In this document: piece by piece, positions 2,516-58,092 of the stretch
Layout: each line of letters begins with the position of its first letter
How positions within the stretch are numbered: position 1 is the first letter of the stretch
Assembly: GCF_013122565.1 (NCBI RefSeq)
Contig: NZ_CP053258.1
Direction: 5' to 3' (one strand)
Source: Escherichia coli
GTDB taxonomy: Bacteria; Pseudomonadota; Gammaproteobacteria; Enterobacterales; Enterobacteriaceae
DNA length: 64,000 nucleotides
Program-made: the position numbers and the translations under genes
The notes under the pieces: generated by a model
Database searches by the model: none
Told to the model about the DNA's origin: nothing
Seen by the model: only the letters and a program-made list of their open reading frames with translations

Positions 2516-4735
2516 CTAAGCGGTAACGGTTTCCTCTTCCTCTTCGTCCATCATTTTCAAATAATGTTTTTCATCACCAGTCATACGAAAAATGGTTTTT
2601 AGTTGCTCCATATATTTCTCTGGAGATATATCTCCCATGTCTGTGATATTAACTGCATCTGAATGGGAACCTCTATTAATGTATCTATAAAATGCTCTAA
2701 AATCATTATTCTTATCATCGCTAGCAAGTTTATTTAACTCTGTCTGTAATGCATCCGTTCTATGAACAAATGCGAAGTAGTATTCCAGTATATTTCTCAT
2801 GATGTTAGGTATTATAACTTTATTTACCCTTCCATCCTTCGCATCTTTTAATACTTGCCATAGGGACTGGTATTCATTCTGAATGCTCTTTTTCTCTATT
2901 TCTGTAATTATGCTATATTCATTTTTTGTTACTCGTCCAAGATAATAATCACGCTTGAATGTTCTATCTTCTTTGCTTCTAGGAGCTAATTTGATAAGTT
3001 CATGAAAGAAATAAAGGTTATGTGTGAGTATTAATGTTTTCTTTACTGCTTTGTTATTGTTGATTATTTCATGGTGAATTATTGAAGCAATATCGTACAC
3101 ATAATTTTGAGAGAGGCTGGATATTGGATCATCAATAACGATAAATACATCTCGCATATCCGTATCATTCTTATCTGTCTTACCTTTACAGCATTCCAGA
3201 AAGTAGAGAAAGGTAATTAAAGTTTTTTCACCCTCGCTAAGAGATCTGTATACATCTTTATCTGTTGTGTTTTCAGAACGTGATATAATATATTTATCAT
3301 TGCTCTCAGTGTGTTTTTTTATGCTAAAACCATAAATTCCTAATAATTTTAGACGTTGATTTATAGAATCTATGGTTGCATCAATGTTAGATATTTGATC
3401 GCGTAGCTCTTTGATCTTTTTGCTATTGTTATCTCCTTGTTCTTTTATGGTATTTAATTCAAGTTGATATTGTTCATAAATGATTTTATAGTCATTCTCA
3501 TATTTTGAGAAAGCTTCAAACTCAGCGTTGCATAATTCTCTTATTGCTCCCCATATTTTGTAACGTATAGACTTTTCACTATCCTTAAATTGTTTGACTT
3601 TAATATTTATTTCTTTAATTCTATTGTTGTACTCTGCTATATTATCAACTACCTTTGCTTCAAGGTCGCTATTGGATTCCAAAATAATAGATATAGATGG
3701 GTTATTGATTTTATCTAACATCAATTTTAAGTTTTTGTTTGCTATTTCCTCTAGTAACGCTATATGAGATGATGTTATATCTTTTTCTTTTGAGGTGATT
3801 AATTCACAAGATGAAATCTCTTGTTTTATTTTTCTTAAATTATCTATGGTAGCGGATTCATAAGACGATCTGATAATGCGTATTTGGTCAACTTTCTTGG
3901 AGTAGCTATCATCAAAGATAGATTCAATTGCTTCTAAAAATTTGTCTTTAATAGTGTCTTCTTGGCAGAATGGGCAACATGTGCCATTTAAATATAATTC
4001 CTTCCCTTTTTTCACCCAGTCAAGGTTTTGAAGTTGTTTAATTGTTTCTGACAAATAGCTATTACTTGAGTCTATAATCGGAGTGGATAAAGATTCTTTA
4101 TCTTTTTCTGAAATGATATATTTTTCTAAAGGTGTAATTGATGCAGTGAATTTATCTTTGTTCTTTAAAAGAATACTATATTCTTGAGCAAGTGACTCGA
4201 TGTTAACGTCAGTGGTTTGAGGGGCTTTTTTAACTTGCTCATAAAATGATCTCTTGCTTCCTAACTGACCTTTCATCAAGTTCTTTAAGTCAGATGATCT
4301 AAAAGGTTCTGCTTTATTCCATATTAAATCAATATATTCATTTTCTTTATTGTTTTTATCTTTAATTAAACGCTCAATAACGTTTTTTTTATCTTTGTAT
4401 TTTGTAAGTAGGTCTTGTCTTATAGCTTCTTTTTCCAACAATTCTTTTTCAATGTCAGCATTTTCCTTACTTAAAGTGAATACTCCTTTTTGCTCTTTTG
4501 CATTATAAAAATTATCCTCAACAAACTTAGTATTATAAACCAATAGGCGAAAAGTATCTATGAAAGGACATTCGCATTCTTTGTAGTCCGTGTTATTTGG
4601 ATTATAGAAATAATTAGATATGGTTGATTTTCCACAACCGTTGTGACCATAAAGTATATTAATTTTTTTTGAGAGATTAAGAGTCGTGAAGCTATCTTTC
4701 TTATAGCTGGTTATATTCTTTAATTTAAGTTCCAT
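2516..4735 (-). CDS. Candidate antiphage/abortive-infection protein: split ABC/SMC-type ATPase with coiled-coil insert, CxxC motif and C-terminal HEPN-like domain (PrrC/RloC-like architecture, inferred)
   Basis: 739-aa ORF with ATG at 4733..4735 and GAGG-type RBS upstream. Walker A GHNGCGKST at residues 30-38; K/E-rich heptad-like region about 85-495 with CCPFC at 253-257; signature-like LSEGEK at 499-504; Walker B/D-loop VFIVIDDPISSLS at 530-542; H-loop LILTHN at 568-573; Rx6H (R684..H691) in the C-terminal ~150 aa. Much more AT-rich than the flanking phage genes. Sits at the P2 old/tin position. Confidence 0.8.
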   Translation of the reverse strand: MELKLKNITSYKKDSFTTLNLSKKINILYGHNGCGKSTISNYFYNPNNTDYKECECPFIDTFRLLVYNTKFVEDNFYNAKEQKGVFTLSKENADIEKELLEKEAIRQDLLTKYKDKKNVIERLIKDKNNKENEYIDLIWNKAEPFRSSDLKNLMKGQLGSKRSFYEQVKKAPQTTDVNIESLAQEYSILLKNKDKFTASITPLEKYIISEKDKESLSTPIIDSSNSYLSETIKQLQNLDWVKKGKELYLNGTCCPFCQEDTIKDKFLEAIESIFDDSYSKKVDQIRIIRSSYESATIDNLRKIKQEISSCELITSKEKDITSSHIALLEEIANKNLKLMLDKINNPSISIILESNSDLEAKVVDNIAEYNNRIKEINIKVKQFKDSEKSIRYKIWGAIRELCNAEFEAFSKYENDYKIIYEQYQLELNTIKEQGDNNSKKIKELRDQISNIDATIDSINQRLKLLGIYGFSIKKHTESNDKYIISRSENTTDKDVYRSLSEGEKTLITFLYFLECCKGKTDKNDTDMRDVFIVIDDPISSLSQNYVYDIASIIHHEIINNNKAVKKTLILTHNLYFFHELIKLAPRSKEDRTFKRDYYLGRVTKNEYSIITEIEKKSIQNEYQSLWQVLKDAKDGRVNKVIIPNIMRNILEYYFAFVHRTDALQTELNKLASDDKNNDFRAFYRYINRGSHSDAVNITDMGDISPEKYMEQLKTIFRMTGDEKHYLKMMDEEEEETVTA

Positions 4736-5065
4736 TTTAAAACCTCATCATTGCCAATGATATTGTATAAATATTTAAGCTGTTTAACATGAATTATTTT
4801 GCTAAACGATAAAGATCTACCTCAGAAGTTTACTTTGTTCAAGCAAAATCTTTTGTTCTAAGAGATATAAAAATTTTTATTAATAGTTTGATTTTTGTTC
4901 ATGGGATTTCCTTTTTTTATGTTTTTACAAAGTAATAACTATGCATGTATCAGGTGCATGGTTTTGCATGTGTCAAAGTTATGCGTCCTCATTGCTTTAC
5001 GTCACAGCTAGCGAGGATTCAACGTACTCATGCAACTGCATTAAAACCGCCCCATGAAGCGGGCG

Positions 5066-16393: not shown

Positions 16394-16997
16394 TTCGCGA
16401 CTGCTGCCGACCGGCTCATCACCGCTTGAAGTCGCCGCCGCAAAAGCCTGTGCGGAAATTGAAAAAACGCCGGTCAGTATTCGTGAGCTGTGGAACCCGG
16501 ATACCTGTCCGGCAAATCTGCTGCCGTGGCTGGCGTGGTCATTTTCGGTTGACCGCTGGGATGATAAGTGGCCGGAAGCGACAAAACGCGCTGTTATCCG
16601 CGATGCGTATTTCATTCACTGCCATAAGGGCACTATAGGCGCAATCCGGCGTGTGGTGGAGCCGCTCGGCTATCTGATTGAGGTAAGGGAGTGGTGGCAG
16701 CTCAACGAGGAGCCGGGGACGTTCCGTATCGTTGTTGGTGTGCTTGAGCAGGGTATTACCGAGGAAATGTATCAGGAGCTGGAGCGCCTCGTTGCTGATG
16801 CAAAACCGGCAAGCCGCCATCTGACGGGACTGGCTATCAGCTTAAGTACAACCGGCAACATTTTTGCCGGTGCGGGATGCTATCACGGCGACGCCCTGAC
16901 GGTTTATCCCTACACCCCGGAGGCCATTATTGTCGGAGGGGATTATTTCCCGGCCTCGGCCATTCATTTAATTGATAACCTGAGAGTAAACGCATGA
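16386..16997 (+). CDS. I: Baseplate protein
   Basis: 203-aa ORF in the gpI position (P2 gpI is 176 aa, so the true start may be internal). Confidence 0.75.
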   Translation: MSDSRLLPTGSSPLEVAAAKACAEIEKTPVSIRELWNPDTCPANLLPWLAWSFSVDRWDDKWPEATKRAVIRDAYFIHCHKGTIGAIRRVVEPLGYLIEVREWWQLNEEPGTFRIVVGVLEQGITEEMYQELERLVADAKPASRHLTGLAISLSTTGNIFAGAGCYHGDALTVYPYTPEAIIVGGDYFPASAIHLIDNLRVNA

Positions 16998-18331
16998 CAG
17001 TGAAATACTACGCCATTCTGACTAATCAGGGCGCAGCACGGCTGGCTAACGCGACGATGCTCGGCAGTAAGCTGAATCTGACGCAAATGGCCGTTGGTGA
17101 TGCGAATGGTGTCTTGCCGACACCAGACCCGGCACAGACAAAACTGATTAACCAGAAACGCATCGCGCCGCTGAATCTTCTGAGTGTTGACCCGAACAAC
17201 CAGAGCCAGATTATTGCGGAGCAAATCATCCCTGAGAACGAGGGCGGATTCTGGATCCGTGAGATTGGGCTTTATGATGATGAAGGCGTACTCATTGCGG
17301 TGGCGAACTGCCCGGAAACGTACAAACCGCAGTTGCAGGAAGGCAGTGGTCGTACCCAGACTATCCGCATGATTCTGGTTGTCACGAATACCGAAGCTAT
17401 CACGCTGAAAATCGACCCGTCGGTGGTACTGGCGACCCGTAAATACGTGGATGATGAAGTCCTGGAATTAAGGCTGTATGTGGATGACCAGATGAGCAAA
17501 CACATTGCCGCACAGGACCCTCATACCCAGTATGCACAGAAACATAATCCGACATTTACCGGAGAACCAAAAGCGCCGACGCCTGCCGCAGGAAATAACA
17601 CCACGCGGATTGCGACCACTGAGTTTGTTCAGGCCGCTATTACCGCTCTGATTAACGGCGCGCCAGCCACGCTGGACACACTGAAAGAAATTGCCGCAGC
17701 CATTAACAATGACCCGAAATTCAGTACCACCATTAACAATGCGCTGTCAGGTAAGCAGCCACTGGATGAGACGCTGACGCATTTGAGCGGAAAGGATGTT
17801 GCCGGTCTTCTCGCATACCTTGGTTTGGGAGAAGGTTCGGCATTACCCGTTGGTGTGCCTGTTCCGTGGCCTTCAGCCACACCGCCTACTGGCTGGCTGA
17901 AATGCAACGGTGCGGCTTTTTCTGCTGAAGAATACCCGGAACTGGCAAAGGTTTATCCGACAAATAAATTGCCTGATTTACGCGGTGAATTTATTCGTGG
18001 CTGGGATGACGGGCGTGGAGTGGATAGCGGTCGTACTTTATTAACGAATCAAGAGCATGCAGTAATTTCTCATAATCATGGAATACCTACAAAAGTGGGG
18101 TCAGTTACTAATATCCCGTATGGAATAGAACAGGTTATATCTGATGAAACCATTTTTTCATCAGCAAAAACAGTTGGTGTGGATTACTGGTCTAACAGTG
18201 AAAGAGTTTTTACTTATACAACTGGTGGAAGAAATGGTGCTGAATCAGTGAGTTCACCTGATGCCTCCTCTTTAATTAAAGAAACCAGACCACGGAACCT
18301 GGCATTTGCGTATATCGTGAGGGCTGCATAA
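16994..18331 (+). CDS. H: Tail fibre protein: constant N-terminal part plus currently expressed variable C-terminal part
   Basis: 445 aa in the gpH position. A gix-like crossover site lies inside the gene at 17808..17833, so residues after about 277 belong to the invertible segment. Confidence 0.85.
   Translation: MTVKYYAILTNQGAARLANATMLGSKLNLTQMAVGDANGVLPTPDPAQTKLINQKRIAPLNLLSVDPNNQSQIIAEQIIPENEGGFWIREIGLYDDEGVLIAVANCPETYKPQLQEGSGRTQTIRMILVVTNTEAITLKIDPSVVLATRKYVDDEVLELRLYVDDQMSKHIAAQDPHTQYAQKHNPTFTGEPKAPTPAAGNNTTRIATTEFVQAAITALINGAPATLDTLKEIAAAINNDPKFSTTINNALSGKQPLDETLTHLSGKDVAGLLAYLGLGEGSALPVGVPVPWPSATPPTGWLKCNGAAFSAEEYPELAKVYPTNKLPDLRGEFIRGWDDGRGVDSGRTLLTNQEHAVISHNHGIPTKVGSVTNIPYGIEQVISDETIFSSAKTVGVDYWSNSERVFTYTTGGRNGAESVSSPDASSLIKETRPRNLAFAYIVRAA
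17808..17833. other. gix/hix-like invertase crossover site (left), inside H
   Basis: TTCTCGCATACC TT GGTTTGGGAGAA: 12-2-12 layout with the same half-site style as hixL from memory, and an inverted match to the right site. Confidence 0.6.
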
Positions 18332-18933
18332 TGGATTACGCCGTATTAAATAACGAGTTTATCGCCACCCAGGCAGGAAATATTACTGTTTATAACTATG
18401 ATGGTGAAACGCGTGAATATATTTCTACATCAACTGAATATCTCGCTGTCGGCGTCGGTATTCCGGCATGTTCTTGTTTGGATGCACCAGGTACACATAA
18501 AGCTGGTTATGCAATCTGTCGCTCTGTAGATTTAAATTCATGGGAATATGTGCCAGACCATCGCGGTGAAATCGTCTATAGCACCGAAACAGGAGAATCG
18601 AAAGAAATCACAGCTCCGGGTGATTATCCTGAAAATACAACCACTATCGCCCCGTTAACGCCATACGATGAATGGAATGGTGAGAAATGGGTGACAGATA
18701 CTGAGGCACAGCATAGTGCCGCAGTAGACGCGGCAGAAGCACAGCGCCAGTCGCTGATTGATGCTGCAATGGCTTCCATCAGTCTGATTCAACTGAAATT
18801 ACGGGCCGGGCGGAAGCTGACGCAGCCAGAAAACACCCGACTTAACGCCGTGCTGGATTACATTGACGCGGTGACGGCAACAGATACCAGCACCGCACCG
18901 GATGTCATCTGGCCTGAACTGCCGGAGGCGTAG
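18331..18933 (+). CDS. G: Tail fibre assembly chaperone (expressed orientation)
   Basis: 200 aa, gpG position; C-terminal motif TSTAPDVIWPELPE typical of tail fibre assembly proteins. Confidence 0.8.
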   Translation: MDYAVLNNEFIATQAGNITVYNYDGETREYISTSTEYLAVGVGIPACSCLDAPGTHKAGYAICRSVDLNSWEYVPDHRGEIVYSTETGESKEITAPGDYPENTTTIAPLTPYDEWNGEKWVTDTEAQHSAAVDAAEAQRQSLIDAAMASISLIQLKLRAGRKLTQPENTRLNAVLDYIDAVTATDTSTAPDVIWPELPEA

Positions 18934-19345
18934 GCCATTCAATATCTGGAGCACTGGAGGAATCAACCAGTTCCAGTGCGTCCAGATAATCTAGCCATAA
19001 ATTATATTGCGCCAGTTCCTCACCTTTCAGACGACCAATCGCCGCTTTACCAGGCCATTGCTTACTGTTTATGTATTCGTTGACCTGATTAATCAATTGC
19101 TGCTTTTCCAATTCGGCTGCGGCAATTTGTTCCTCATGAGTTGGCGGTGGAATATCAATCCATGCAGGCATTCCGTCGATGACACCTCTGTATTTTCCTT
19201 CTGGTGCTTCCTTCATAAATTCGGCGGCAACAGTGTCGTCAATTTCGATTCCATCATCGGGCCATTCGCCGGATTCCTGATAAGCGATTTTAAGCTCCAC
19301 AGGGAAAAACGCATTTTTATCGGCACTGAAAATATATTTCTGCAT
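18905..19345 (-). CDS. Alternative tail fibre assembly chaperone (G'), silent in this orientation
   Basis: 146 aa, convergent with G and overlapping its 3' end; C-terminal motif SSAPDIEWPTPP; lies inside the invertible segment. Confidence 0.75.
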   Translation of the reverse strand: MQKYIFSADKNAFFPVELKIAYQESGEWPDDGIEIDDTVAAEFMKEAPEGKYRGVIDGMPAWIDIPPPTHEEQIAAAELEKQQLINQVNEYINSKQWPGKAAIGRLKGEELAQYNLWLDYLDALELVDSSSAPDIEWPTPPAVQAR

Positions 19346-19347
19346 TT

Positions 19348-19746
19348 CTACCGTCCTATCGAAATATAACTGAATCTGTATTGCTGTGAGATATCACTGG
19401 TTGCCACACGCCACGCTGAATTACTGATATGTTCAAAATTTACAGACAAAACCTGCGGGGCAGGAATCGACGGGTCTGACTGAACGGCATCAGACATAAC
19501 ACTGACTGAAACCATCGGCTGATTAGGGAATGGTATAGGGAAGTGTCCACTGATAAAGCGGGTCGTGTTTCCTGAAAAAGTGCCAAACTGAACAATATAT
19601 CCACCTGGTAGCCTGAACCATCCCGAACCAGAAGCGAATGCTCCCATATCCGGTATCTGATTATCTCCTGTGCCCACATCCCTTTTCGCCGCTTCTCCCA
19701 AACCAACGTTTATGAAAATGCAGAGATAACGGGCAACTGGCATCAT
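19348..19746 (-). CDS. Alternative tail fibre C-terminal cassette (H'), expressed only after inversion by fusion to the constant part of H
   Basis: The minus-strand frame encodes GLGEAAKRDVGTGDNQ..., which is in frame with the GLGE of H across the shared 14-bp crossover sequence; the functional part is about 19348..19706. Confidence 0.7.
   Translation of the reverse strand: MMPVARYLCIFINVGLGEAAKRDVGTGDNQIPDMGAFASGSGWFRLPGGYIVQFGTFSGNTTRFISGHFPIPFPNQPMVSVSVMSDAVQSDPSIPAPQVLSVNFEHISNSAWRVATSDISQQYRFSYISIGR
19693..19718. other. gix/hix-like invertase crossover site (right), about 50 bp upstream of the invertase gene
   Basis: TTCTCCCAAACC AA CGTTTATGAAAA; its reverse complement shares TTGGTTTGGGAGAA with the left site. 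The sites bound an invertible segment of about 1.9 kb (17820..19706). Confidence 0.6.
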
Positions 19747-19767: not shown

Positions 19768-20367
19768 ATGCTCATGCTTATTGGCTATGTACGCGTGTCA
19801 ACAAATGACCAGAACACGGAATTGCAGCGTAACGCGCTGGAGTGCGCAGGATGCGAGCGGATTTTTGAGGATAAAATCAGCGGCACGAAGTCCGACCGAC
19901 CGGGACTGAAAAAACTGCTCAGAACATTATCAGCAGGTGACACTCTGGTAGTCTGGAAGCTGGACCGGCTGGGGCGTAGTATGCGGCATCTGGTCATTCT
20001 GGTTGAGGAGCTGCGCGAACGCGGCGTTAATTTTCGCAGCCTGACAGATGCTATTGATACCAGCACGCCGATGGGGCGTTTTTTCTTTCATGTGATGGGT
20101 GCCCTGGCTGAAATGGAGCGAGAACTCATTGTCGAGCGGACACGCGCCGGACTGGAAGCGGCCAGAGCCAAAGGGCGTATTGGTGGCAGACGTCCGAAGC
20201 TCACCGCGAGTGAGTGGGAACAGGCAGGACGGTTGCTGGCTGCGGGTGAATCACGTCAACGCGTGGCGCTGATTTTTGATATTGGCCTGTCCACGCTCTA
20301 TAAAAAATTCCCCTCATCAGCGGCAAAGAATAAATTGTGTCATCCCTTAGCCAACCGGGACAAATAG
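19768..20367 (+). CDS. Serine DNA invertase (Hin/Gin/Cin/Pin family)
   Basis: 199 aa; N-terminal catalytic motif GYVRVSTNDQ with the active-site serine; C-terminal helix-turn-helix; immediately next to the invertible tail-fibre segment. Confidence 0.85.
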   Translation: MLMLIGYVRVSTNDQNTELQRNALECAGCERIFEDKISGTKSDRPGLKKLLRTLSAGDTLVVWKLDRLGRSMRHLVILVEELRERGVNFRSLTDAIDTSTPMGRFFFHVMGALAEMERELIVERTRAGLEAARAKGRIGGRRPKLTASEWEQAGRLLAAGESRQRVALIFDIGLSTLYKKFPSSAAKNKLCHPLANRDK

Positions 20368-20426
20368 CCTGACATCTCCGGCACAACTGAAAATATCACT
20401 CACCCATTAACCACGGAGTTAAACGG

Positions 20427-26729: not shown

Positions 26730-26811
26730 TGTGTTTTATTTTATCTGTTTGTTTTATAAGGATAAATTAACTAAAATGGCAACATCAACAAAACCGGAAG
26801 AGGTGCTCGCG

Positions 26812-27030
26812 ATGTTTCATTGTCCTTTATGCCAGCATGCCGCACATGCGCGTACAAGTCGCTATATCACTGACACGACAAAAGAGCGTTATCACCAGTG
26901 TCAGAACGTGAATTGCAGCGCCACGTTCATCACTTATGAGTCTGTACAGCGATACATTGTGAAGCCGGGAGAAGTCCACGCCGTGAGGCCGCACCCGTTG
27001 CCGTCAGGGCAGCAAATTATGTGGATGTAA
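26812..27030 (+). CDS. ogr: Ogr zinc-finger late-gene transcriptional activator
   Basis: Internal start MFHCPLCQHAAHAR gives 72 aa as for P2 Ogr; CxxC...CxxxxC zinc-finger cysteines; last phage gene before att. Confidence 0.85.
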   Translation: MFHCPLCQHAAHARTSRYITDTTKERYHQCQNVNCSATFITYESVQRYIVKPGEVHAVRPHPLPSGQQIMWM

Positions 27031-27132: not shown

Positions 27133-27159
27133 AAAAAATAAGCCCGTGTAAGGGAGATT
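27133..27159. other. Prophage attR core (P2 att core)
   Basis: AAAAAATAAGCCCGTGTAAGGGAGATT, the 27-nt P2 attP/attB core from memory; it coincides with the 3' end of cyaR and marks the prophage/host junction. Confidence 0.55.
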
Positions 27160-27219
27160 ACACAGGCTAAGGAGGTGGTTCCTGGTACAGCTAGCATTTT
27201 ATGGGTTATGTTTTTCAGC
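27133..27219 (-). ncRNA. cyaR: CyaR (RyeE) Hfq-dependent sRNA
   Basis: Minus-strand sequence GCUGAAAAACAUAACCCAUAAAAUGCUAGCUGUACCAGGAACCACCUCCUUAGCCUGUGUAAUCUCCCUUACACGGGCUUAUUUUUU (87 nt) matches CyaR from memory, including the terminator hairpin; position between yegQ and ogr as in K-12. Confidence 0.75.
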
Positions 27220-27253
27220 GAAACGGATGATAACCTTAATAAATGCAGCTGTA

Positions 27254-28665: not shown

Positions 28666-28767
28666 AATTCTCTCGTTCTGATGACAGGTCAGATCCGCTT
28701 CACCTGATGAAGCGGCCAGGGGAGTGCCCCCACTTTAAGGGCGGGCATTGTAGCGCAATCGGCGGGT

Positions 28768-29064
28768 TTAGCTCCAGTGTAAATGTCTGGTGGCGTCCTG
28801 GTTTTGGTTAAGGATACGAATGACGATAATTTCCCCTGGTGATTGCAGGAAATAAATTACGTGGCGTTCAAAAGGAAGAACAAAAATACCTTCGCCTAAT
28901 TCAGGTCTGGGCGTACCTATATTATTGTTACTCAGAATCTGGAGAACGTCTGAAAGATGTTCCACATATCTGTCGGCTTGTGGTTCGCCGAAATGGTGAT
29001 AACTGTAATACCAGATGCCTTCTAAATCCTCATTGGCTTTTGGCATGAGTTTAATAATACGCAC
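28768..29064 (-). CDS. ParE/RelE-family type II toxin
   Basis: 98 aa; pattern ...GEGIFVLPFERHVIYFLQSPGEIIVIRILNQNQD typical of ParE toxins; starts one base after the antitoxin stop. Confidence 0.7.
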   Translation of the reverse strand: MRIIKLMPKANEDLEGIWYYSYHHFGEPQADRYVEHLSDVLQILSNNNIGTPRPELGEGIFVLPFERHVIYFLQSPGEIIVIRILNQNQDATRHLHWS

Positions 29065-29065
29065 A

Positions 29066-29317
29066 TTATTTCCTTATCCCTGCTTTCACCTTCCGTAAAA
29101 ACGCGTCCTTTTCCCACGGCTGAGCTTCACCACTACTCAACCCTTCTGCAAGCATGTCACGTAATGCTTGCAGGCGAGACTCTGCTTGCTTTTCTCGAAG
29201 TAAGCGCAGTGACTCACGGATCACTTCGCTTTGGGTGCGATAGTCGCCGGATTCAATTAAGGACTCGATAAATTCACGCAACTCATCGCCGAGATCAACC
29301 GTCATCGTTCTGGCCAT
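29066..29317 (-). CDS. ParD-like ribbon-helix-helix antitoxin
   Basis: Start chosen at MARTMTVDLGDELREFIESL (83 aa); small acidic RHH-like protein immediately upstream of the toxin; the track ORF extends to 29413. Confidence 0.65.
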   Translation of the reverse strand: MARTMTVDLGDELREFIESLIESGDYRTQSEVIRESLRLLREKQAESRLQALRDMLAEGLSSGEAQPWEKDAFLRKVKAGIRK

Positions 29318-29562
29318 TTTACGTCCGCCTGTAAGTAAAAATCTTACATCAGTGTATTTCATAAAACGCATAGCGTCACGAAAGTATTGGAAGATATTTT
29401 GGCATATGAACATGTTCAGGAGGGGATGGTAAACAAAGAAAGCACAACGAGTGCTCGTCAGTGCCCACTATTTTAATGGCGGAGGTTAATCTTAATTATC
29501 AATAACTAAGCGTTATTTTGATATAAAGCCGGACGCCAACAAACCCACGCCCGGCATCGTAA

Positions 29563-41284: not shown

Positions 41285-41425
41285 CAGCGGGACGCTGAAA
41301 CGGGAAAGCCCCTATAAGGAAAGGGTCATGATGAAGTGGATCATCATCGTGGTGCTCTTAGTCATAAGCTTCCCGGCTTACTAAGACTACCAGGGCGGGG
41401 GAAACCCCGCTCTACCCTCACTCCT
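41285..41425 (-). ncRNA. Sib antisense RNA (antitoxin) opposite ibs copy 1; ends approximate
   Basis: In K-12 each ibs ORF lies wholly inside a ~140-nt antisense Sib RNA (established knowledge); the extent here is estimated and no promoter or terminator was mapped. Confidence 0.3.
41328..41384 (+). CDS. Ibs-family type I toxin peptide (MMKWIIIVVLLVISFPAY)
   Basis: 18-codon hydrophobic ORF with GGAAAGGG RBS-like sequence upstream; Ibs family signature MMK...ILV...ISFPAY. Confidence 0.75.
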   Translation: MMKWIIIVVLLVISFPAY

Positions 41426-41611
41426 GAAATTATGCCTTCACGATAAGATTGTCAATCCGCAGGCTTTGTAGTCTGCGATCCTGCCAGCAAATATTCTTTG
41501 CGAGTCGTTACGCAATAATCACACTGGAAACTATTTTATCCGCAAGTCAGCGATAGACTGCATACAGGGCGAAAGGAGGTAAGCCGACGATTTCAGCGGG
41601 ACGCTGAAACG

Positions 41612-41752
41612 GGAAAGCCCCTCCCGAGGAAGGGGCCTTAAATAAGGAAAGGGTCATGATGAAGATACTCATCATCGTGGTGCTCTTAGTGATTAGCTAC
41701 CCAGCATACTAAGACTACCAGGGCGGGGGAAACCCCGCTCTACCCTCACTCC
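41612..41752 (-). ncRNA. Sib antisense RNA opposite ibs copy 2; ends approximate
   Basis: As for copy 1. Confidence 0.3.
41656..41712 (+). CDS. Ibs-family type I toxin peptide (MMKILIIVVLLVISYPAY)
   Basis: Second repeat copy, same frame and context as the first. Confidence 0.75.
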   Translation: MMKILIIVVLLVISYPAY

Positions 41753-41941
41753 TGAAATTATGCCTTCACGATAAGATTGTCAATCCGCAGGCTTTGTAGT
41801 CTGCGATCCTGCCAGCAAATATTCTTTGCGAGTCGTTACGCAATAATCACAGAGGAAACTATTTTGTTCACGCGTTAGCGATAGACTGCATTCAGGGCGA
41901 AAGGAGGTAAGCCGACGATTTCAGCGGGATGCTGAAACGGG

Positions 41942-42085
41942 AAACCCTCTCCCGGAGAAGAGGGCTTTTAATAAGGAAAGGGTTATGATGAAGCACGTCA
42001 TCATACTGGTGATACTCTTAGTGATTAGCTTCCAGGCTTACTAAGAACACCAGGGGGAGGGGGAAACCTCTCCCTAACCCTCACT
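41942..42085 (-). ncRNA. Sib antisense RNA opposite ibs copy 3; ends approximate
   Basis: As for copy 1. Confidence 0.3.
41985..42044 (+). CDS. Ibs-family type I toxin peptide (MMKHVIILVILLVISFQAY)
   Basis: Third repeat copy; 19 codons; closest of the three to K-12 IbsA from memory. Confidence 0.75.
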   Translation: MMKHVIILVILLVISFQAY

Positions 42086-42264
42086 CCTGAAATTATGTCA
42101 CTCCGCCCTTAGTGTCAATCGACGGCTCTCCGTTCTTGCGAGGCGAATAGCAAAATTTTCTGCGCCGCCGGGCCTAATTCTGAAAGTTTCTTCGTTTGCT
42201 CTTATTTCATTATTGCAATCGGTATGATACCGGACCTCGATAATTCTCTAAGAAAGGATTTCTT

Positions 42265-57613: not shown

Positions 57614-58080
57614 AGTAAGTACAAAACCTATTCGTTGTATGACAAATGTCACAATTCGATCATGGATAAATCGGGGCAAAAATGCAATGTTGCAGCACTA
57701 TTTATCTCATATTATTTGAGGGTAATAACCTCACATTATCCCTGAATTAAAAGTGGTAATAATAAACATTATTTAAGAAATATCGCATGTGGAGACGCAA
57801 TATTAAATATTGTCAACCTAAAGAAACTCCTAAAAACCATATTGAATGACACTTAATATAATTCTTAAAAATAGCCAATTGCCGAATTGTTACCTTGCCT
57901 GCTATTCCGTTAGCTGTAACACTTCCTCCTGCATTATTGGAGAGCCAATATTCAATTACCATAATGTCACCTTATATTCGGAAGTTAATTTCCGCAATAA
58001 CCCTTTCTCATCAACGATTGTATGCAGAGAGGGTTTGAAAAATTAAGCTAAATCAGTGTATTGGTAGCTAAAAAGCCAGG

Positions 58081-58092
58081 GGCGGTAGCGTG
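58081..58092 (+). promoter_or_regulatory. ops / JUMPstart element upstream of the colanic acid (wza) operon
   Basis: GGCGGTAGCGTG, the ops consensus, about 180 bp upstream of the wza start in the untranslated leader. Confidence 0.6.

Follow-up and report, generated by a model that had tools for sequence, protein, structure and literature searches.

The stretch of Escherichia coli DNA analysed here (64,000 nucleotides, hereafter the window) contains, by the RefSeq annotation across window positions 1-27029, a prophage with the late-gene order of P2: Q P O N M L X Y K lysB/C R S V W J I H G ... FI FII E T U D ogr. The top phage matches are Peduovirus genomes. The P2 late-gene set is complete, and the tail-fibre gene H belongs to the Ogr-controlled late operon. 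Reference P2 has the order H-G-terminator-fun(Z)-FI, and in this intact-looking P2-like (Peduovirus) prophage it is the H-G/fun(Z) position that is occupied by an inversion switch. According to the earlier note canonical P2 has no such switch, which is in line with the absence of an invertase between G and FI in the reference genome, yet one lone gix-like relic is present inside its H gene. The P2 pF late-promoter region upstream of FI was located at 20335..20426 (+ strand) by aligning the window with P2, in which the activator-binding site and pF are annotated, and is nearly identical to that of P2. The last approximately 13 codons of the invertase gene run into this region, and it is here that the inserted module has its right edge.

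The layout consists of two convergent cassettes, each with a fibre tip and its own chaperone, and an invertase gene just outside the segment. Gene H as now assembled (16994..18331, + strand, 445 aa) is an open reading frame with a P2-H-like constant N-terminus and a collar-type variable C-terminus; Pfam PF12571 covers residues 1-150 and Collar PF07484 residues 287-334. The N-terminal part is 42% identical to P2 gpH, and this homology stops at the crossover site. The constant part, about 276-280 residues common to both fibre forms (16994..17819, + strand), was delimited by in-silico inversion and is identical in both orientations of two related loci (L003 and L004, described below). It is followed by the currently expressed variable cassette Hv (17822..18331, + strand), which begins with G-L-G-E and is 57% identical to the C-terminus of StfE of the E. 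coli K-12 prophage e14, and by the assembly chaperone for Hv (18331..18933, + strand, 200 aa; PHROG 105, E = 3.7e-97), which is 90% identical to TfaE of e14. On the opposite strand lie an alternative assembly chaperone (18905..19345, - strand, 146 aa; PHROG 188, E = 2.6e-62; 56% identical to e14 TfaP) and the currently silent alternative cassette Hv' (19348..19704, - strand), which also begins with G-L-G-E and has a gp53-like C-terminal domain, matched by Pfam PF21882 in the fused H' protein. The two chaperone genes are convergent and overlap by 29 bp. None of the five proteins gave an NCBIfam family over the cut-off.

Two 26-bp sites of 12-2-12 architecture could be read directly from the sequence in inverted orientation, as the earlier note had proposed. 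The left site, TTCTCGCATACC TT GGTTTGGGAGAA (17808-17833, + strand), lies inside H, and the right site, TTCTCCCAAACC AA CGTTTATGAAAA (19693-19718, + strand), lies upstream of the invertase gene. The central dinucleotides match (TT in the left site; AA in the right one, read as TT from the opposite strand), and all four half-sites conform to TTNTCNNAWACS. Together the sites form the top inverted repeat of the region, with 27-nt arms that are 81% complementary and a spacing of 1857 nt. A search with the Hin/Gin-type palindromic consensus, allowing up to 3 mismatches, returned these two sites only in 64 kb and nothing in 100 shuffles. The 14-mer TTGGTTTGGGAGAA, put forward as the shared sequence, occurs exactly twice in the window, on opposite strands, where 0.02 copies are expected; the identity in fact extends to 15 nt. 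From the end of the right site it is 55 bp to the invertase ATG at 19774, or 49 bp to an upstream ATG at 19768, close to the 50 bp first estimated, and the spacing is 54-55 bp in all 71 site/invertase pairs from the related loci and the window. The left site is identical or nearly so in most of the related viral loci. The tetrapeptide G-L-G-E is encoded in the fibre frame at both sites, again as claimed, and it or a close variant (GFGE, GLRE, GLKE) is found on both cassettes in 54 of 54 tabulated loci, window included. A shufflon-like multiple inversion, as in one P2-like prophage of enteropathogenic E. coli (EPEC), was also considered and rejected, as a search of the 64-kb window that tolerated up to 4 mismatches from the consensus gave no third site.

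The invertible unit measures 1,885 bp from core to core. Inversion in silico at the central dinucleotides gave an uninterrupted H' of 394 aa, made of H residues 1-280 and 114 new residues with no stop at the junction, and placed the ATG of the alternative chaperone 4 nt past the H' stop. Both predictions of the earlier note, that flipping about 1.9 kb would join some 277 constant residues in frame to the alternative C-terminus and that the second chaperone would then follow the fused fibre, are thereby borne out in silico. The Hv and Hv' tips are unrelated in sequence and belong to different Pfam domains (Collar versus Gp53-like_C), which is consistent with a different receptor or host specificity of the two orientations. 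By analogy with Mu, P1 and carotovoricin, receptor specificity would be expected to alternate between the two tips.

The invertase (19774..20367, + strand, 197 aa) is a serine DNA invertase of the Pin/Gin/Hin/Cin subfamily (PHROG 125, DNA invertase) with the catalytic Ser9 in the motif YVRVSTNDQ. Over residues 1-184 it aligns end to end with the Gin structures 3uj3/4m6f (E = 6e-95), and residues 139-188 align with the DNA-binding domain of Hin (1hcr). The protein thus has both an N-terminal catalytic serine and a C-terminal helix-turn-helix, as is typical of small serine recombinases of about 190 aa. It is 87% identical to PinE of e14 and 79% identical to Gin of Mu. A recombinational enhancer with a Fis-binding region is predicted at the 5' end of the gene (19790..19865), from homology and synonymous-site conservation. 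The blocks TCAACAAATGACCAGAA and GCAGGATG are invariant across the window, pinE and gin, including synonymous positions, and according to an eLife paper the two Fis sites are separated by a stretch with the AT-rich tracts ATTTA and TAATG. Among the closely related sequences compared, the 28-codon window with the lowest synonymous diversity in the invertase gene is codons 4-31, and the window at the enhancer position (codons 6-33) ranks sixth lowest of 153. A 5'-end effect or shared ancestry could yield the same low diversity. The 5' coding region of the invertase gene is accordingly described here as the putative seat of a Fis-bound enhancer. A simple scan gave no sigma-70-like promoter upstream of the invertase gene; terminator matches from the promoter and terminator scan fell within coding sequence and were disregarded.

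Evidence for inversion in nature comes from relatives of the prophage. The loci L003 and L004 (E. coli strains BS74R-D and E-93) have the same two 26-bp sites as the window and an invertase that is 98% identical to ours. They are identical to each other over 5,101 bp except for an interior 1,857 bp, which is the exact reverse complement with 0 mismatches, and the breakpoints fall within the shared repeat. Inversion at exactly these sites has demonstrably happened in nature, in near-identical prophages. In complete E. coli genomes, 20 match the orientation of the window and 22 match the form inverted in silico (at least 80% coverage). A set of 51 loci, comprising the window and 50 viral contigs, contains collar/gp53-like cassette pairs of which 12 have one orientation and 13 the other; every pair counted has G-L-G-E at both junctions and TT/AA cores, and over the 51 loci the same cassette types are about equally frequent in the expressed and in the silent position. 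The near equality of the two orientations among relatives suggests that flipping continues throughout the lineage. Three contigs of the mirror type (L013, L016 and L068) were left out of the orientation count, and L048, an e14-like remnant that carries an IS insertion and has been rearranged on a larger scale, is absent from it because it has no left site with a TT core. The odd left sites of some viral contigs were considered as a possible different architecture, and this was rejected, L013 and L068 being mirror-image contigs.

Opposite orientations in the databases could in principle also have another origin, either RecA-dependent recombination at short repeats or faulty assembly, with no site-specific recombination involved. 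The contigs L013 and L068 lend this some weight, as they are mirror-image assemblies around the segment and indicate that assemblers do mishandle the locus; they are probably assembly artefacts of a population with mixed orientations. Against this, the shared repeat is just 15 bp, far below the length for efficient RecA recombination, and at every locus the breakpoints are the canonical 26-bp invertase sites beside an invertase gene. Moreover, the chromosomes of L003 and L004 are both finished and were produced by independent laboratories, and inversion verified by PCR has been published both for e14 (PMC12529663) and for P2-like prophages (PMC4272514). We regard an origin of this kind as having a close to negligible probability, and site-specific recombination as the source of the two orientations.

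A different question is whether the module, intact in sequence, still flips here, or whether the invertase is unexpressed or disabled so that only the assembled H is made. The window assembly displays a single consensus orientation, the scan for an invertase promoter was negative as described above, and 4 of the 197 invertase residues are not those of the L003/L004 pair, for which inversion is proven, all of which would suit a locked switch. However, one of these four differences is R29L and the other three fall in the non-conserved C-terminal tail, and both sites, the Ser9 motif and the entire invertase reading frame are intact. The balance of orientations among relatives also speaks against locking, and Pin-family invertases can act in trans, as illustrated by PinQ, which inverts the e14 segment (PMC12529663). 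A fossil or locked switch is accordingly judged to be highly unlikely.

The best explanation of the locus, to which we assign a probability of roughly 0.9, is therefore a functional site-specific inversion switch of the Pin/Gin family that swaps the fibre tip together with the matching chaperone, and we infer that it is active in this particular isolate. Dimers of the serine invertase would bind both 26-bp sites, which would be synapsed, very probably on the Fis-bound enhancer within the invertase's own 5' coding region. Both sites would then be cleaved at the central TT/AA, and strand rotation would flip the 1.89-kb segment. In this scheme the late V-W-J-I-H operon would continue from the roughly 280 constant residues of H into either of two C-terminal receptor-binding cassettes and the chaperone that belongs to it. 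As now assembled, the pair is a StfE-like tip of the collar type and a TfaE-like chaperone; the inverted orientation would supply a gp53-like tip and a TfaP-like chaperone. With two alternative tip/chaperone pairs, a lysogen population is proposed to release two kinds of virion with different adsorption specificity. By analogy with Mu, P1 and carotovoricin, the two fibre forms may also differ in host range. A correct annotation would show a single phase-variable tail-fibre gene that has two alternative C-termini, and not a 'phage tail protein' and a separate 'gp53-like domain-containing protein'. In phage typing, in host-range prediction and in the use of this prophage both fibre forms need to be taken into account, and loci of this kind can be joined wrongly in assemblies.

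A further feature of the right end is an ATGATG start 41 nt outside the right site, which opens a leader of 14 codons, MMP... (MMPVARYLCIFINV), running through the site into the adjacent tip. The corresponding minus-strand reading frame begins at 19746. The leader is present in 70 of 73 related loci, and in Mu an analogous ATG-initiated frame (MPCVPKSTIIQNLGLQE) runs through the site. Being conserved and reading into whichever tip adjoins, it could allow a free receptor-binding tip protein to be made in the lysogen. It is tempting to imagine that the promoter-distal "silent" cassette may be translated in this way, with the free tip acting in superinfection exclusion or receptor masking; we consider this a long shot. 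If true, the switch of this intact P2-like prophage would control defence as well as host range. A rival reading holds that the inversion is chiefly an anti-phage device of the host and not a means of varying the phage's host range, and that a chimeric short tip protein initiated at the conserved ATG blocks adsorption of other phages. The closest homologue of the module, the e14 P segment, gives grounds for this, its inversion by PinQ/PinE being reported to block T2 adsorption through StfE2 (PMC12529663), and the frequency of the leader among related loci points the same way. On the other hand, conservation of the leader is confined to the part that doubles as recombination half-site and region upstream of the invertase, the other codons vary freely, and no promoter-like site for the leader was detected by simple scan. 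In addition, this prophage, unlike e14, has the complete P2 late genes with H in the late operon, which makes a function in the virion the simplest reading. A mainly anti-phage role is thus very improbable, though it is compatible with the main explanation. The preferred reading remains a switch of virion fibres.

Among known systems, the comparison with the Mu G segment made in the earlier note holds for the logic of the inversion, while on identity values the nearest characterised relative is the P segment/Pin system of the cryptic prophage e14 of E. coli K-12. Mu G/Gin as the primary classification was rejected on these grounds: the invertase is closer to PinE than to Gin (87% versus 79%), the first chaperone and TfaE share 90% identity, and at the right site all 26 of 26 positions agree with e14. 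The left sites of e14 and the window differ at 3 positions. The gene order of e14 (stfP-tfaP / tfaE-stfE / pinE) is the same, as is the 29-bp convergent overlap of the chaperone genes. The two elements also have in common the G-L-G-E junction and the crossover repeat TTGGTTTGGGAGAAG(G), which is the crossover mapped experimentally in e14 (PMC12529663). The two differ in that e14 is defective, a remnant that lacks a functional virion and whose constant fibre gene is truncated (the whole of StfP is 209 aa), whereas in the window the module lies in a complete P2-type late operon with a P2-H-like constant part of 280 residues. Furthermore, Hv' and the e14 StfP tip are unrelated (25% identity), the second chaperone and TfaP are 56% identical, and the window invertase, unlike that of e14, has a 13-residue C-terminal extension into the P2 pF promoter.

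Mu G/Gin (S/U versus S'/U') follows the same logic, with a constant N-terminus, a site within the fibre reading frame, two convergent tip and chaperone cassettes, and, just outside the segment, an invertase gene whose start codon follows a site after 54 bp. The 5' coding blocks of gin that are homologous to the enhancer are conserved in the window. In contrast, the core dinucleotide of Mu is TC/GA and not TT/AA, the junction reads L-G-L-Q-E and not L-G-L-G-E, the G segment is 3.0 kb long, and the virion backbone differs. The tips (31-37% identity over short stretches) and the chaperones (26-32%) of Mu are essentially unrelated to those of the window. The P1 C segment/Cin, p15B Min and Salmonella Hin/hix systems belong to the same invertase subfamily and use 26-bp 12-2-12 sites, with an enhancer within or near the invertase gene. 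The Hin core is AA/TT, as in the window, and Hin inverts a promoter and not a coding segment; Min has six sites.

In P2-like prophages of EPEC E2348/69 both orientations coexist in clonal cultures (Goldberg et al. 2014, PMC4272514). By their published description these loci are elements of the same kind, with the invertase between the fibre chaperones and FI; one of them has three sites and four variants, the window two sites only. Fels-2/Fin of Salmonella and the annotated Peduovirus genomes pro483, 500465-2, P2-like T22 and MET_P1_103_31 have the same kind of element at the same position, and the match to MET_P1_103_31 covers 92% of the 3.6-kb region with 96% identity. The cassette content varies from phage to phage. 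An invertase is reported to occur often at the Z/fun hotspot of P2-like phages, with neighbouring genes inverted, and a likely programmed inversion has been reported for Fels-2. The switch is in this sense an ordinary and already documented one: P2-like prophages with an invertase are common, and loci nearly identical to this one have been annotated in many phages and genomes. It represents a further case of the classical mechanism of Mu G/Gin and e14 P/Pin, already seen operating in P2-like prophages.

Natural inversion in genomes is the strongest evidence that the switch at the tail-fibre gene H is real and active. BS74R-D (Switzerland) and E-93 (China) both have the two 26-bp recombination sites of the window, together with identical flanking proteins and an invertase 98% identical to that of the window. 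Over 5,101 bp the two genomes differ solely in the 1,857 bp that separate the shared repeats, which are reverse-complemented exactly, without a single mismatch. Among complete E. coli genomes, a match covering at least 80% was found in 20 for the region as assembled and in 22 for its in-silico inverted version. The evidence does not favour the view that the switch is a locked fossil, nor that the opposite orientations reflect RecA recombination or an assembly artefact. The switch would also be active in the window isolate, and its two fibre forms would differ in host range.

The locus consists of H (16994-18331, plus strand, 445 aa; tail-collar fibre N-terminal domain PF12571 and Collar domain by Pfam), two fibre-assembly chaperone ORFs with matches to PHROG 105 and PHROG 188 (18331-18933, plus; 18905-19345, minus), a fibre-tip ORF (19348-19746, minus) with a Gp53-like C-terminal domain in Pfam/PHROG searches, and a recombinase ORF (19774-20367, plus) matching PHROG 125, 'DNA invertase', followed by the tail sheath gene FI from 20427. 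The constant part of H is P2-like, with 42% identity to P2 gpH, and the homology stops at the crossover site. The invertible segment (17850-19650) has a GC content of 40-48%, lower than the roughly 57% of the P2 late genes next to it, as would be expected of a module that unrelated phages pass on by horizontal exchange.

The two 26-mers reported in the earlier note are present exactly at 17808-17833 and 19693-19718 and form the top-scoring inverted repeat of the region. A Hin/Gin-style palindromic consensus with at most three mismatches matches both sites and nothing else in the 64 kb, and has no match in 100 shuffles; the repeat shared between them, TTGGTTTGGGAGAA, is found twice, on opposite strands, vs 0.02 occurrences expected. 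After in-silico inversion of 17820-19706, the constant part of H continues in frame through L-G-L-G-E into the minus-strand cassette with no stop, giving a 394-aa protein, and the ATG of the second chaperone lies 4 nt past the stop, so that the alternative chaperone is placed behind the fused fibre. Canonical P2 is indeed without the switch, its reference order being H, G, terminator, fun(Z) and FI with no invertase. With sites, repeat, fusion, chaperone position and the P2 comparison all checked, every part of the earlier observation is confirmed, and its interpretation is supported.

A scan of viral contigs gave 79 loci with invertases 80-99% identical to that of the window, which were analysed along with it. 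The distance from the end of the right site to the invertase start codon is 54-55 bp in 71/71 site/invertase pairs, the site cores are TT on the left and AA on the right, and both cassettes start with G-L-G-E or a close variant in all 54 tabulated loci. In the 51 loci counted, collar-type and gp53-like-type tips are paired as expressed and silent 12 times in one arrangement and 13 times in the reverse. This is what a freely flipping segment sampled in consensus assemblies should look like.

In two of the viral loci, L013 (IMGVR_UViG_2695420821_000010) and L068 (2585427784_000007), the sequence upstream of the left site repeats the invertase-side flank in reverse complement for as far as the sequence extends (990 nt and 1,032 nt, respectively), and these contigs are therefore mirror-image around the invertible segment. 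They are probably an assembly artefact of a population holding both orientations, and call for care when such loci are annotated automatically. Another locus, L048 (1-4600), is an e14-like element where two sites in the same orientation enclose a StfP-like constant gene and a gpI-like gene, both on the opposite strand. Its invertase-proximal cassette is adjoined by an IS3-family insertion (orfA/orfB), and the element appears to be a rearranged, decaying form of the switch.

The invertase is a full-length member of the Gin/Hin/Cin/Pin subfamily, matching the Gin crystal-structure sequence over residues 1-184 (E = 6e-95), with the catalytic serine within YVRVSTNDQ and 79% identity to Mu Gin and 87% to e14 PinE. 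Hin, Gin and Cin require a Fis-bound enhancer in the 5' part of the invertase gene. The stretch corresponding to the enhancer position (about 19790-19865) aligns with pinE and gin, and the blocks TCAACAAATGACCAGAA and GCAGGATG are invariant among them, synonymous positions included. In a set of 69 distinct invertase genes, the 5' end has the lowest synonymous codon diversity: the lowest-diversity 28-codon window begins at codon 4 and codons 6-33 have a mean of 0.53 bits vs 0.83 elsewhere in the gene. Such conservation agrees with an embedded cis element but is no proof of one. The switch would probably depend on Fis.

The final 13 or so invertase codons (ending in …KNKLCHPLANRDK and the stop) are encoded by a homologue of the P2 pF late-promoter upstream region (20335-20426), including a stretch annotated in P2 as activator-binding site, and from about 20352 up to where FI begins, window and P2 are nearly identical. 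The invertase module thus directly abuts the FI late promoter. PinE and Gin lack the C-terminal tail gained in this way.

The sole reading with any novelty is a role in host defence like that of e14 StfE2, which we do not favour. An ATGATG start at 19705-19746 (minus strand) begins a leader of 14 codons, MMPVARYLCIFINV, whose frame continues across the right site and into the neighbouring cassette, and RefSeq annotates the product as a 132-aa 'gp53-like domain-containing protein'. An ATG-initiated leader of this kind is found in 70/73 loci, an analogous frame exists in Mu, and through the leader a free fibre tip comparable to e14 StfE/StfE2 may be expressed. However, the conserved part of the leader falls on the recombination half-site and on the region upstream of the invertase, and the leader may for that reason be incidental; a promoter scan also found no promoter for it.

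The switch as such is an ordinary, already known feature. In EPEC E2348/69, inversions were detected in two P2-like prophages, one two-state and the other with three repeats and four variants (Goldberg et al. 2014, PMC4272514), and the Z/fun hotspot of P2-like phages often holds a DNA invertase, with adjacent genes inverted (2024 preprint on P2-like hotspots). 'Phage tail protein I' and 'tail fiber assembly protein' were enriched beside programmed-inversion targets in a genome-wide screen (PMC9881135), and a likely programmed inversion has been reported for the P2-like prophage Fels-2. The same annotated arrangement is present in the Peduovirus MET_P1_103_31 (92% coverage at 96% identity) and in the deposited Peduovirus genomes pro483, 500465-2, P2-like T22 phage and a series of Klebsiella phages, and parts of the query region were matched in 3,460 of 5,426 complete E. 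coli genomes.

An intact-looking P2-like prophage is represented at positions 1 to about 27,030 by its replication and late half (gpA replication endonuclease, portal, terminase, capsid, lysis, V-W-J-I-H, tail sheath and tube, tape measure, D and ogr), with the switch at the end of the V-W-J-I-H operon that holds the tail fibre. The prophage ends at ogr (26811-27029), directly past which lie the CyaR sRNA gene (27136-27221, minus strand) and then yegQ; this places the prophage in the P2 attachment region adjacent to yegQ/CyaR, in which the ogrK remnant is all that K-12 retains. Between replication gene A and the portal gene, at the P2 old/tin hotspot, a 740-aa AAA-family ATPase (2519-4738, minus strand) has an end-to-end match to PADLOC candidate defence family PDC-S06 (E = 4e-253) and a weak one to the PrrC C-terminal region, and is likely a prophage-borne anti-phage gene. 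The window also contains a ParD/ParE toxin-antitoxin pair (28766-29361; ParD antitoxin annotated frameshifted, ParE toxin intact), three Sib antitoxin RNAs arranged in tandem opposite ibsA, two more Ibs-family toxin genes (41313-42118), and a JUMPstart element upstream of wza (58054-58092).

Canonical P2 (L011, NC_001895) has a single gix-like site inside H (2658-2683), TTATCGAATATC TC GGTTTACAGGAA, which is 22/26 identical to Mu gixL and encodes Y-L-G-L-Q-E-T-V as the Mu S junction does. A switch that P2 once had, or an exchange of cassettes with Mu/P1-type fibres, seems to have left this lone site behind.

The earlier label of the switch as Mu G-segment-like holds for its logic but not for its nearest relative. 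Mu has the same spacing between right site and invertase. Its cassettes are essentially unrelated to those of the window and its site core is TC/GA instead of TT/AA. The P segment of e14, the cryptic K-12 prophage, has the same gene order (stfP-tfaP / tfaE-stfE / pinE) and the same 29-bp overlap of convergent chaperone genes; its TfaE is 90% identical to the TfaE-like chaperone of the window and its StfE C-terminus 57% identical to the tip currently expressed. The right site of e14 is identical at 26/26 positions and the left site differs at three, and its experimentally mapped crossover repeats, TTGGTTTGGGAGAAGG and its complement (PMC12529663), are the repeat common to the two sites of the window. 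Judged by gene order, identities and sites, e14 P segment/Pin and not Mu G is the nearest characterised relative.
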